Positions 25,018 to 31,306 are shown, numbered from the stretch's first letter. The stretch: DNA of 64,000 nucleotides from Burkholderiales bacterium (GCA_028868995.1 JAGWTH010000009.1:19811-83810); one strand, 5' to 3'. The notes: a model not told the origin generated them from the letters alone. Made by a program: numbers and translations.

Positions 25018-26442
25018 TCAGAGCTTCACGTACTCGTAGTCCACCGGCTGCGCGTTGATGCCGCGGTCCGGCGGCGCGATCCAGGCGGCCATCTTGCCCG
25101 GCTCGGTGACGCGCTGCATGAGGCTCTTGACGAAGCGGATGTCGTCCTCGGTGGGCAGCCATTCGGCCTTCTTCGCCTCGAACTCGGCGGCGGTGATGGG
25201 GTTGCCCTGCGGGTCGGTGTGCAGGCCGGCCCAGGCGCCCACGTGGCGGCGGAAGCGCGTGGACGGCAGCCTGAACTCGAAGGGCACGCCGGCCTTCTTC
25301 ACCAGCATGTTCCAGCGGGTCACGCCGATGTTGCAGTCCTTGGCGTATTCCAGGCGGGTGATCTCGTTGATGCCGTTGCGCACCGCGATGGCCTCGTCCT
25401 TCAGGCCGCCGCGCCCGTCCGGCACCTGGATCACCATGGTGCTGTCCGTCTCCACGTGGTCGGCGAACTTCGCCTCGTCCGGGCGCCCCTTGATGCCGTT
25501 GCTGAAATAGTTGGCCGCATTCGAGGAGGACTCCGATCCGAACAGGTCCAGGGAGCTGGTGAACCAGAAGTTCATGAACTTCTGGATCGTCGGCAGGTCG
25601 ACGGCGCCGGCGTTGCGGATCCTCCTGGCGTCGTCCGTGTCCAGCTCCTTCATCACCTCCAGCGTGCGCCTGATGACGCGGCCGACGCCGGTCTCGCCCA
25701 CGAACATGTGGTGGGCCTCCTCGGTCAGCATGAACTGGCAGGTGCGCGAGAGCGGGTCGAAGGCGCTCTCGGCCAGCGACTTGAGCTGGAACTTGCCGTC
25801 GCGGTCGGTGAAGTAGGTGAACATGAAGAAGGACAGCCAGTTGTCCATGGGCTCGTTGAAGGTGCCCAGGATGCGCGGCTTGTCCGGGTCGCCGGAATGG
25901 CGCTCCAGCAGTTCCTCGGCCTCCTCGCGGCCGTCGCGGCCGAAGTAGGCGTGCAGCAGGTAGACCATGGCCCAGAGGTGGCGGCCCTCCTCCACGTTCA
26001 CCTGGAACAGGTTGCGCAGGTCGTACAGCGACGGCGCCGTGTGCCCCAGCATGCGCTGCTGCTCCACCGATGCCGGCTCGGTGTCGCCCTGCGTCACGAT
26101 CAGGCGGCGAAAGGTGGAGCGGAACTCGCCCGGAACTTCCTGCCAGGCGTCCTGGCCCATGAAGTCGCCGAAGCCGATCTTGCGGCCCTCCTGCCGGTCG
26201 GCCAGGAAGATGCCCCAGCGGTAGTCGGGCATGGGCGTGTAGCCGTACTGGGCCCAGCCCTGGGCGTCGACGCCCACGGCGGTGCGCAGGTAGACGTCGC
26301 TCGCCTTGAAGTCGCTCGGGCCCATCTCGTCCCACCAGCGCAGGAAGGCGGGCTGCCAGTGCTCCAGGGCGCGCTGCAGCTGGCGGTTGTCGGCCAGGCT
26401 GACGTTGTTGGGGATCTTGGCTTGCAGGTCGATCGTGGTCAT
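25018..26442 (-). CDS. boxB: Benzoyl-CoA 2,3-epoxidase diiron subunit
   Basis: IVTQGDTEPASVEQQ, NVEEGRHLWAMV and MLTEEAHHM diiron motifs; typical BoxB N- and C-termini. Confidence 0.95.
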   Translation of the reverse strand: MTTIDLQAKIPNNVSLADNRQLQRALEHWQPAFLRWWDEMGPSDFKASDVYLRTAVGVDAQGWAQYGYTPMPDYRWGIFLADRQEGRKIGFGDFMGQDAWQEVPGEFRSTFRRLIVTQGDTEPASVEQQRMLGHTAPSLYDLRNLFQVNVEEGRHLWAMVYLLHAYFGRDGREEAEELLERHSGDPDKPRILGTFNEPMDNWLSFFMFTYFTDRDGKFQLKSLAESAFDPLSRTCQFMLTEEAHHMFVGETGVGRVIRRTLEVMKELDTDDARRIRNAGAVDLPTIQKFMNFWFTSSLDLFGSESSSNAANYFSNGIKGRPDEAKFADHVETDSTMVIQVPDGRGGLKDEAIAVRNGINEITRLEYAKDCNIGVTRWNMLVKKAGVPFEFRLPSTRFRRHVGAWAGLHTDPQGNPITAAEFEAKKAEWLPTEDDIRFVKSLMQRVTEPGKMAAWIAPPDRGINAQPVDYEYVKL

Positions 26443-26463
26443 CTCTTCGTTGTCCTCGTCGCG

Positions 26464-29662: not shown

Positions 29663-29734
29663 GCACATCCGCAGCGGGCCGGCGACGGGCCCGCGTGCGA
29701 AAGACAAGGACAAAGGGGCACGAGGAGACAAGGG

Positions 29735-31306
29735 ATGCACCTGAGCCACGCCGATCACAGCACCAGCCCGCCGCGCGTCGAGATCCCGCGCGACTACAAC
29801 GCGGCCCATGACCTCCTGCGCCGCAATGCCGCGCGGCCCGGCAAGGTCGCCTACATCGACGCGGCCAGCGGCGCGAAGCTCACCTACGCGCAGCTGGAGG
29901 AGCAGTCGCACCGCTTCGCCGATGCGCTGCGCGAGAGGGGCTTCGCGCCCGAGACCCGCGTGATGGTGGCCATGCTCGACACGCTCGAATGGCCCGTGGT
30001 GTTCCTGGGCTGCATCCTCGCCGGCGTGGTGCCGATCGCGGCCAACACGCTGCTCACCACGAAGGACTTCGACTTCATGCTGCGCGACTCGCGCGCACGG
30101 GCGCTGTTCGTGTCGAAGCCCCTGCTGCCCACCTTCGAGTCGCTGGTCGGGCAGGTAGGCACGCTGAAGGACGTGTTCGTGGCCGGGGACGAGGGAGAAC
30201 GCTCGGTCGCCCACCTCGTCGCCTCCGGCCGGCCCACCGGCGAGGTCGCCAGCACCTGCAGCGACGACGCTTGCTTCTGGCTCTATTCCAGCGGCTCCAC
30301 CGGCACGCCCAAGGGCACGGTGCACCTGCACAGCCACCTGGTCCAGACCGCGGAACTCTATGGCCGCGCGATCCTGGGCATCCGCGAGGACGATGTCGTC
30401 TATTCCGCGGCCAAGCTGTTCTTCGCCTACGGGCTGGGCAACGCCCTCACCTTCCCGCTGAGCGTGGGCGCCACCACGGTGCTGCTGCCCTCGCGGCCCA
30501 CGCCGGCCGACGTGTTCCGCATCCTCAGGGAGCACCGGCCCTCGATCTTCTACGGCGTGCCGACGCTCTACGCCGCGCTGCTGGCCGACGCGAACCGGCC
30601 GAGGAAGGACGAGATCGCCCTGCGCGTGTGCGCCAGCGCGGGCGAGGCGCTGCCGGCGGAGATCGGCGAGCGCTGGACGCGCGAATACGGCTGCGAGATC
30701 CTGGACGGCATCGGTTCCACCGAGATGCTGCACATCTTCCTGTCCAACCGCCCCGGCCGGGTGCGCTACGGCACCACCGGCCAGGCGGTGCCCGGCTACG
30801 AGCTGCGCATCGTCGGCGACGACGGCCACGAATGCGGGCCGGGCGAGATCGGCGAGCTGCAGATCAGCGGGCCCAGCGCGGCGCTCATGTACTGGAACAA
30901 CCGCGCGAAGACCAAGTCCACGTTCGCCGGCGAGTGGACGCGCAGCGGCGACAAGTACACGCGCGACGCCGACGGCTACTTCACCTACGGCGGGCGCAGC
31001 GACGACATGCTCAAGGTGGGCGGCATCTACGTCTCGCCCTTCGAGGTGGAGGCCTGCCTGATGACGCACGACGCGGTGCTCGAGGCGGCGGTGATCGGCG
31101 TGGCCGACCAGGACGGCCTGGTCAAGCCCAAGGCCTACGTGGTGCTGAAGGCCGGCGCCCACGCGAGCGCGGAGCAGCTGCAGGCCCACGTGAAGGCGAA
31201 GCTCGCGCCCTACAAGTACCCGCGCTGGATCGCCTTCGTGCCCGAGCTGCCGAAGACGGCCACCGGCAAGATCCAGCGCTTCAAGCTGCGCGCCGCCGCG
31301 GCCTGA
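29735..31306 (+). CDS. Benzoate-CoA ligase
   Basis: LYSSGSTGTPKG, SAAKLFFAYGLGN, DGIGSTEMLHIF, RSGDKY and LPKTATGKIQRF motifs; box context. Confidence 0.93.
   Translation: MHLSHADHSTSPPRVEIPRDYNAAHDLLRRNAARPGKVAYIDAASGAKLTYAQLEEQSHRFADALRERGFAPETRVMVAMLDTLEWPVVFLGCILAGVVPIAANTLLTTKDFDFMLRDSRARALFVSKPLLPTFESLVGQVGTLKDVFVAGDEGERSVAHLVASGRPTGEVASTCSDDACFWLYSSGSTGTPKGTVHLHSHLVQTAELYGRAILGIREDDVVYSAAKLFFAYGLGNALTFPLSVGATTVLLPSRPTPADVFRILREHRPSIFYGVPTLYAALLADANRPRKDEIALRVCASAGEALPAEIGERWTREYGCEILDGIGSTEMLHIFLSNRPGRVRYGTTGQAVPGYELRIVGDDGHECGPGEIGELQISGPSAALMYWNNRAKTKSTFAGEWTRSGDKYTRDADGYFTYGGRSDDMLKVGGIYVSPFEVEACLMTHDAVLEAAVIGVADQDGLVKPKAYVVLKAGAHASAEQLQAHVKAKLAPYKYPRWIAFVPELPKTATGKIQRFKLRAAAA

Follow-up and report, generated by a model that had tools for sequence, protein, structure and literature searches.

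What supplies electrons to a benzoyl-coenzyme A (CoA) epoxidase whose gene cluster does not encode the usual reductase? The question is raised by a stretch of 64,000 nucleotides from a soil bacterium of the Burkholderiales (GCA_028868995.1, JAGWTH010000009.1:19811-83810; hereafter the window, meaning this stretch at its full length), in which the genes boxR, boxC and boxB are not accompanied by boxA, and a divergent operon for benzoate-CoA ligase (bcl) and an ATP-binding cassette (ABC) transporter opens with the gene of a small flavodoxin (fld). The answer that we favour, drawn from gene content and sequence comparison, is that this flavodoxin, reduced by an NAD(P)H reductase whose gene lies elsewhere, is probably the electron donor of BoxB in this lineage. 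The G+C content of the window is about 71%, and its closest BoxB relatives in a scan of a genome collection holding one genome per species are Ramlibacter genomes, at 91-94% identity; judged by sequence, the genes of the window match those of the Comamonadaceae and, among them, of the Ramlibacter group. An exact look-up of this BoxB in public assemblies gave no match.

The box cluster, its missing genes and its flavodoxin

Gene identities were taken from curated hidden Markov models scored against their equivalog cutoffs (Table 1). The TIGR03225 match spans residues 4-474 of the 474 residues of BoxB, the solved structure of BoxB from Azoarcus (Aromatoleum) evansii (3PER) is matched over the full length (652 bits), and the di-iron ligand motifs EEGRH and TEEAHH align with it; the protein keeps its iron ligands and is predicted to epoxidise benzoyl-CoA with O2 and two electrons. 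In the operon of which boxB is the last gene, 21 bp separate boxC from boxB, and the most likely start of boxC is the ATG at 28158, 5 nt past the boxR stop, which argues for boxR-boxC-boxB being a single operon. BoxR combines a helix-turn-helix domain (PF01381/PF13560, residues 15-73) with a shikimate-kinase-like one (PF01202, residues 127-288). On the other strand, fld is the first gene of the divergent fld-bcl-ABC operon, and the gap between fld and bcl is short in all loci. Glycogen genes start at 36279, and the cluster therefore ends after the ABC transporter.

The end of boxB is unusually tight. The stop codon of a convergent DctM-like gene (TGA, 25014-25016), one C (25017) and the boxB stop (25018-25020, TCA on the plus strand) follow each other directly, and a single base between two convergent stops leaves no coding room after boxB, where the canonical BoxAB arrangement has boxA, the gene of an iron-sulfur flavoprotein with two [4Fe-4S] clusters and an FAD/NADPH domain. 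A tblastn search of the whole window with three BoxA proteins (from Mycetohabitans, Bordetella and a third locus) found no BoxA, the sole match being a 49-residue ferredoxin motif (E 4e-6) in the small ferredoxin gene at 62429-62758, and a tblastn search of the whole window with one BoxD found no BoxD-like or other aldehyde dehydrogenase (best E 4.6). A first-pass annotation of the same DNA had put fld at the head of the ligase/ABC operon, had ended boxB one base from the stop of a convergent gene and had described the window as free of BoxA and BoxD; the gene coordinates, the junction and the tblastn searches bear it out on each of these points.

The flavodoxin is an acidic protein (isoelectric point 4.5). 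By sequence, the nearest solved structures are those of YqcA (2M6R, E 2e-20) and of cindoxin (4OXX, E 2e-16), after which come the flavin mononucleotide (FMN) domains of cytochrome P450 reductases; MioC, PA3435 and the FMN domain of sulfite reductase are also among the PDB matches. The loops TSTYGSGDVPDN and YGVIALGDRTY align with the FMN loops of YqcA, and their conservation predicts that the protein binds FMN. An AlphaFold2 model (pLDDT 89.3) gives it the alpha/beta flavodoxin fold, with TM-scores of 0.81 to cindoxin 4OXX (30% identity) and 0.72 to YqcA 2M6R. It does not have the long-chain insertion and reaches 33.6 bits on the long-chain flavodoxin model TIGR01752, against a cutoff of 146.75. 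The equivalog cutoffs of the Escherichia coli proteins are missed as well (109 bits against 160 for PRK08105, 93 against 158 for PRK09004), and on these scores it is a relative of YqcA and MioC and not an ortholog. Flavodoxins of the MioC/YqcA/cindoxin type characteristically pass electrons to oxygenases or reductases, and cindoxin is a dedicated FMN electron shuttle to the oxygenase P450cin.

Two types of box locus

The arrangement of the window was compared across two samples. Scanning its BoxB against one genome per species gave 80 flavodoxin-type loci, with BoxB 84-94% identical, from isolates and metagenome-assembled genomes of Ramlibacter, Polaromonas, Variovorax and Rhodoferax, and the BoxA-type sample consists of 80 metagenome loci retrieved with BoxA as the query. 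Sequencing runs that hold the cluster, including the organism-labelled X10-X13, were ruled out as isolate genomes; they are metagenomes, each of over 1.5 million contigs. Scoring the flavodoxin position took at least 700 bp upstream of boxR, a flank available at 72 flavodoxin-type and 42 BoxA-type loci. A flavodoxin homologue is present in all 72 of the former, in the same place and orientation between boxR and the ligase, and is 76-91% identical across genera, a conservation similar to that of BoxR and of the ligase, BCL. Neither BoxA nor BoxD occurs within 10 kb in any of the 80 flavodoxin-type loci (66 of which extend at least 1.5 kb, and 61 at least 5 kb, past boxB), and no flavodoxin homologue occurs in the 80 BoxA-type loci (42 with the required upstream flank). 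The presence of the flavodoxin and that of BoxA are strictly exclusive across the 160 loci. Co-occurrence of the flavodoxin with boxA-less boxBC clusters had been set as a check by the first-pass annotation, and it is what the counts give, 72/72 against 0/80 in BoxA-type loci. The BoxA-less, flavodoxin-bearing layout is a conserved type found in at least 72 related species, not a one-off.

BoxA-type loci have the order boxR-boxC-boxB-boxA, with boxA directly after boxB in 73/73. In 37 of 42 BoxA-type clusters (loci L088-L155 and L001), the place that the flavodoxin has in the other type, between boxR and boxD/bcl, is taken by a DUF4863 gene. Both forms of the cluster are found inside the Comamonadaceae: Hydrogenophaga aquatica has bcl-boxD / boxR-boxC-boxB-boxA and no flavodoxin, and the cluster of Rhodoferax ferrireducens lists BoxA, BoxD and an "unknown" gene (PMC2755013, supplement). 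De novo clustering of the open reading frames of the 80 flavodoxin-type loci recovered the box, fld, bcl and ABC genes, together with a syntenic block (phosphotransferase, acyl-CoA dehydrogenase, glutathione S-transferase) in about 28 of them; no ferredoxin-NADP reductase (FNR)-like gene came out of it, and no reductase is conserved near the cluster in these loci.

The same counts bear on the idea of a split pathway, in which BoxA (and BoxD) would be encoded at another locus and the flavodoxin would be an accessory, for example for repair or priming of the di-iron centre or as a backup under iron limitation, or would be unrelated. We take this idea seriously while judging it unlikely. Unlinked genes do occur, as neither the window nor any of the 80 related loci has BoxD, and full-length BoxA-like proteins (40-43% identity) are found away from any boxB in Cupriavidus replicons. 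However, boxA adjoins boxB in every one of the BoxA-type loci counted above, boxCBA is nearly invariant in published surveys (PMC6449761), and the genera reported to have a second ligase copy or cluster include neither Ramlibacter nor Polaromonas (PMC10803450); a split pathway would also leave the strict exclusivity of flavodoxin and BoxA unexplained. The Cupriavidus replicons, plasmid p1 of Cupriavidus sp. KK10 (L164) and NC_015727.1 of C. necator N-1, contain no BoxB match, and their BoxA-like proteins may be divergent reductases for some other oxygenase. Protein searches with a single BoxA sequence (from locus L143) and with a profile of seven divergent BoxA proteins were uninformative, with no Ramlibacter or Polaromonas among the best 120 of more than 8000 matches in each: those 120 came from Bordetella and Achromobacter with the single sequence, and from Paraburkholderia, Bordetella, Pigmentiphaga and one Hydrogenophaga with the profile.

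The two types also differ in the sequence of the proteins they share. Among themselves, the flavodoxin-type BoxB proteins have 84-93% identity; with every BoxA-type BoxB compared (from Burkholderiaceae, Alcaligenaceae and Hydrogenophaga) they have only 58-62%, and with the crystallised A. evansii enzyme 60%. The BoxA-type BoxB proteins of three Burkholderiales families reach 78-86% among themselves and 70% with that of A. evansii. Between the two types BoxR is 43-51% identical. The ligase motif HLHSHLVQTAELYG is common to all flavodoxin-type loci, and the ligase motif HLHSHL[IV]QTAELYG is held in common with Thauera/Azoarcus-type ligases and not with BoxA-type Burkholderiales clusters. These comparisons indicate that the flavodoxin-type module is, as a whole, an old and separate lineage. 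Because the difference in partner tracks a deep divergence of BoxB, it would not be the outcome of a recent boxA deletion.

Such divergence could instead reflect a different substrate, with BoxB and BoxC acting on another aryl-CoA, for example a substituted benzoyl-CoA, which would explain both the change of partner and the lack of BoxD. BoxB is indeed only about 60% identical to characterised BoxB, and the ligase belongs to a separate motif group with the Thauera/Azoarcus-type enzymes. We nevertheless give this very little credence: BoxB, BoxC and the ligase exceed the cutoffs of the benzoate enzymes by a wide margin, and the ligase reaches only 348 bits, against a cutoff of 1000, on the 3-hydroxybenzoate ligase model. 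Even if it were correct, it would be compatible with the flavodoxin as donor.

It is just as hard to believe that the cluster is an incomplete, non-functional remnant of a box pathway. This is the conclusion to which a 2024 KEGG-based survey leads, since it places the ligase contexts of Ramlibacter and Polaromonas in an 'incomplete context' group and argues that lower pathways of this kind should not function, without mention of the flavodoxin (PMC10803450). A decayed version of the cluster does exist in Ramlibacter aquaticus LMG 30558 (L071, 7102-11425), which keeps the binding-protein gene, fld, boxR and boxB, with boxC and the ligase absent within 10 kb; this locus had been considered as evidence of a tie between fld and boxB and was dropped, as it looks like a decaying cluster. 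In the window, on the other hand, the reading frames of the box cluster are intact and have a strong coding signal, with a G+C content at third codon positions (GC3) of 0.95-0.97, BoxB and BoxC exceed their equivalog cutoffs, and the iron ligands are kept. Moreover, the 84-94% conservation of BoxB extends over at least 80 species, and metatranscriptome contigs cover the genes.

Control region and electron supply to BoxB

The intergenic region between boxR and fld contains a sigma-70-like promoter facing boxR, TTGACA (29157-29152)-N16-TATAGT (29135-29130), which agrees with the consensus at 11/12 positions and is the sole such match, and the only strong promoter, in the 6.7 kb scanned. Two conserved boxes are associated with it on the minus strand: ATGCAGTAAACTGC (29158-29171, TGCA-N6-TGCT) abuts the -35 hexamer, and GTATAGTGCAAT (29125-29136), a half-site, overlaps the -10 hexamer. 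An alignment of 73 intergenic regions shows conservation of at least 90% for both TGCA boxes. They are similar to the BoxR/BzdR motif in the literature, ATGCACTATAGTGCAT, which consists of TGCA repeats with TGCA-N6-TGCA as its main form (PMC6449761), and neither is a perfect copy of the published palindrome; we consider them putative BoxR operators. The fld ATG is 15 nt from the ATGCAGTAAACTGC box, so near that the promoter of fld must overlap the TGCA boxes. Metatranscriptome contigs from soil and rhizosphere, at least 90% identical to the window, cover boxB, boxC, boxR, fld and bcl. The support that they give is weak, as contig depth reflects expression poorly and DNA may have been carried over. 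One of these contigs (run X24, 307 nt, 1 mismatch) starts where the conserved TGCA box has its inner edge (29158), which leaves 28 nt to the fld ATG; this start may be the 5' end of a transcript or only the edge of a contig.

On the reading that we prefer, benzoate would be imported by the ABC transporter and converted by the ligase to benzoyl-CoA, which would free BoxR from the TGCA boxes of the control region, and both the boxR-boxC-boxB and the fld-bcl-ABC operons would then be transcribed. A NAD(P)H:flavodoxin/ferredoxin reductase encoded elsewhere would reduce the flavodoxin, and the flavodoxin would hand single electrons to the diferric centre of BoxB. BoxB would epoxidise benzoyl-CoA with O2, ring opening by BoxC would follow, and the BoxD step would be carried out by an unlinked aldehyde dehydrogenase. 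BoxA reportedly fails to co-purify with BoxB, its contact is transient and minor amounts of it suffice (PMC4498308), and a requirement of this kind makes an exchange of partner plausible. Replacement of BoxA by the flavodoxin had already been proposed in the first-pass annotation; the exclusivity in 160 loci, the deep BoxB lineage, the BoxR-type promoter region and the likeness to cindoxin speak for it, and it is unproven. The electron transfer itself, the identity of the reductase and a lack of BoxA in other parts of the genome are inferences from what the sequences show, namely the gene identities and gene order, their conservation, the mutual exclusion of flavodoxin and BoxA, the operator-like motifs and the transcript coverage in environmental samples.

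As the source of electrons for the flavodoxin, the same annotation had pointed to the FNR gene at 62765. The gene product is a type-2 FNR by its fold, but nothing links it to the box cluster: it is 31 kb away and, together with the ferredoxin gene, follows a cysI-cysH-cysDN block, so that the pair may be the electron supply of sulfite reduction. In this block, a gene for a cysI-like sulfite reductase hemoprotein (57136-58953) and genes of the 3'-phosphoadenosine 5'-phosphosulfate (PAPS) reductase family (59326-60051 and 59682-61001) are followed by an unannotated stretch to about 62.3 kb, after which come the ferredoxin and the FNR; CysJ is absent from 57136-63880. The ferredoxin/FNR pair is a candidate, unlinked, for the upstream reductase of the flavodoxin.

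A pair of this kind could also act on BoxB directly. A generic cellular donor, such as an FdxA-type ferredoxin with FNR or PaaE of the phenylacetate pathway, might reduce BoxB without the clustered flavodoxin being the physiological donor, and the small, catalytic amounts of transiently bound reductase that BoxB needs (PMC4498308), as well as the presence of a ferredoxin/FNR pair in the window, agree with this. We think it improbable all the same, because it leaves unexplained why fld occurs under a BoxR-type operator in 72/72 clusters and in none of the BoxA-type clusters, and because the pair in the window sits with sulfate-assimilation genes. As for the benefit of using a flavodoxin, the iron-sparing rationale put forward in the first-pass annotation is speculation: the replacement is fixed in the genome and, as far as is visible, not regulated by iron, and robustness towards oxygen would be an equally good guess.

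Several points weigh against the flavodoxin as donor. The search for BoxA covered the window and flanks of up to 10 kb, and a boxA may lie elsewhere in the genome. BoxD is also outside the cluster, so that at least one gene of the pathway must be unlinked, which weakens any argument from the absence of BoxA alone. No gene of the cluster codes for a reductase of the flavodoxin, whose scores do not reach the NCBIfam equivalog cutoffs and so assign it to no precise subfamily function, and its role as donor is predicted from genes and their comparison. Finally, fld and BoxB co-occur within one clade, so that the association counts in effect as a single evolutionary event, kept up over a long time, and not as repeated independent ones.

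An independent precedent for boxB without BoxA is found in the actinobacterium Nonomuraea gerenzanensis (locus L162, NZ_LT559118.1, 5640765-5660174), with boxB at 9001-10410 and boxC at 11393-13093. No full-length BoxA homologue is present anywhere in the 11.85-Mb record, a whole chromosome, and BoxA is therefore not a universal companion of boxBC; near this boxBC there is no homologue of the flavodoxin of the window either. The reading frame between boxB and boxC (10428-11273) was considered as an alternative reductase and ruled out; it is a PaaX-like regulator on the opposite strand. Putting this together, we lean slightly towards a broader proposal: that there is a second, ancient form of benzoyl-CoA epoxidase in which a flavodoxin of the cindoxin kind, receiving its electrons from a housekeeping NAD(P)H reductase, is the obligatory partner of BoxB in place of BoxA. 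Ramlibacter would have this form as a rule, as would many Polaromonas, Variovorax and Rhodoferax species living in oxic soils and waters, and pathway predictors would systematically take it for an incomplete box pathway; Nonomuraea suggests that the partner of BoxB has changed more than once.

Surrounding genes, significance and known systems

Table 1. Coordinates of the box cluster and of other features of the window, with the model scores that identify them.
Feature	Position	Strand	Evidence
DctM-family permease, convergent; bounds the operon, outside the system	23547-25016	+	PF06808 90.9 bits
boxB, di-iron benzoyl-CoA 2,3-epoxidase oxygenase component, 474 aa	25018-26442	-	TIGR03225 759 bits (cutoff 499)
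boxC	26464-28158	-	TIGR03222 907 bits (cutoff 712)
boxR, BoxR/BzdR-type repressor	28164-29084	-	XRE helix-turn-helix and shikimate-kinase-like sensor domain; PRK08154 352 bits (cutoff 204)
boxR/fld intergenic control region, 101 bp	29085-29185	.	
fld, flavodoxin, 158 aa, short-chain MioC/YqcA/cindoxin type	29186-29662	+	PF00258 85.7 bits (cutoff 25)
bcl, benzoate-CoA ligase, 523 aa	29735-31306	+	TIGR02262 781 bits (cutoff 375)
ABC transporter, benzoate-type, five genes	31384-36002	+	Peripla_BP_6, BPD_transp_2 x2, ABC_tran x2
ABC binding protein	31384-32571	+	
ABC permeases	32687-33550, 33547-34545	+	
ABC ATPases	34538-35296, 35289-36002	+	
7Fe-type ferredoxin	62429-62758	+	Fer4 and DUF3470
Type-2 ferredoxin-NADP reductase	62765-63880	+	Thioredoxin-reductase fold (Pyr_redox_2), CxxC motif absent

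The convergent neighbour of boxB had been called a tripartite ATP-independent periplasmic (TRAP) transporter gene in the first-pass annotation. Its 489-residue product is of the DctM family by Pfam, being above the PF06808 cutoff, but it is divergent, with 93.5 bits on NCBIfam TIGR00786 against a cutoff of 268. It forms a DctQ-like/DctM-like pair at 22982-25016, in which the DctQ-like partner is weak and no DctP binding-protein gene is adjacent, and of the 80 related loci only about 10 have the DctM-like gene here. On the far side of the cluster is a glycogen/maltooligosaccharide block (36279-50051) with a glgB-like gene, glgC, two genes of the CBM48 alpha-amylase family and a starch-synthase-type glgA; a 1702-residue protein encoded at 43468-48576 has a 4-alpha-glucanotransferase domain (residues 175-693) and an alpha-amylase catalytic-domain match (753-829). 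Beyond lies a gene of the Haem_oxygenase_2 family ('iron-containing redox enzyme', 50132-50812), then a gene with a weak FeeM-like N-acyl amino acid synthase match (51049-51465) and, after the latter, a hybrid histidine kinase gene (51486-54029).

What is new here is a flavodoxin-bearing, BoxA-less variant of the known box pathway, of which the observation is solid and the mechanism plausible. The flavodoxin is absent from a 2019 study of the BoxR regulon that found boxCBA nearly invariant (PMC6449761), and full-text searches of one literature library returned no paper that connects a flavodoxin with BoxB. If the proposal is true, the textbook definition of the box pathway by BoxA and BoxB would be too narrow, and completeness rules of the KEGG or TIGRFAM kind would under-call aerobic benzoate degradation in abundant Comamonadaceae of soil, rhizosphere and freshwater. 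It would also provide a clear natural case of a flavodoxin driving the turnover of a soluble di-iron aryl-CoA epoxidase, useful for the docking of redox partners and for simpler, iron-sulfur-free and oxygen-robust BoxB systems, and the two forms of BoxB, about 60% identical, would be a natural pair with which to map the partner-binding surface.

The system is most like BoxAB/BoxC of A. evansii and the Burkholderiales, with which it shares a di-iron BoxB, BoxC, a BoxR-type regulator with TGCA boxes, the ligase, the ABC transporter and a divergent layout, as in the canonical boxR-boxCBA / boxD-bcl divergon. Unlike the canonical cluster, it has no boxA after boxB and no boxD, it has a flavodoxin where DUF4863 or boxD sits, and its BoxB and BoxR stand apart by the identities given above. 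The phenylacetyl-CoA epoxidase PaaABCE is likewise a di-iron enzyme and likewise epoxidises an aryl-CoA thioester; BoxB has a structural homologue in PaaA, and in both systems the product has to be removed by the next enzyme (PMC4498308). Unlike BoxB, the PaaABCE oxygenase is heteromeric, and its reductase PaaE is FNR-like with a plant-type [2Fe-2S] domain.

Other comparisons concern the flavodoxin itself. MioC and YqcA of E. coli and PA3435 of Pseudomonas share the FMN loops and the predicted fold of the flavodoxin of the window, but they are housekeeping proteins with no tie to an aromatic pathway; NADPH reduces them by way of Fpr, a separate ferredoxin/flavodoxin reductase. In class Ib ribonucleotide reductase, the flavodoxin-like NrdI is encoded beside, and acts on, NrdF, a ferritin-like di-metal carboxylate protein. 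Unlike the role proposed here, NrdI assists in cofactor assembly and does not deliver electrons at every turnover, and the flavodoxin of the window matches the NrdI family PF07972 only weakly (20 bits, below the cutoff). P450cin and cindoxin of the cineole catabolism of Citrobacter braakii resemble the window in having a small FMN flavodoxin inside a catabolic cluster, where it is the dedicated shuttle of an oxygenase. The P450cin cluster encodes its own reductase, unlike that of the window, and the acceptor of cindoxin is a haem P450, whereas the acceptor that we propose for the flavodoxin of the window is a di-iron protein.

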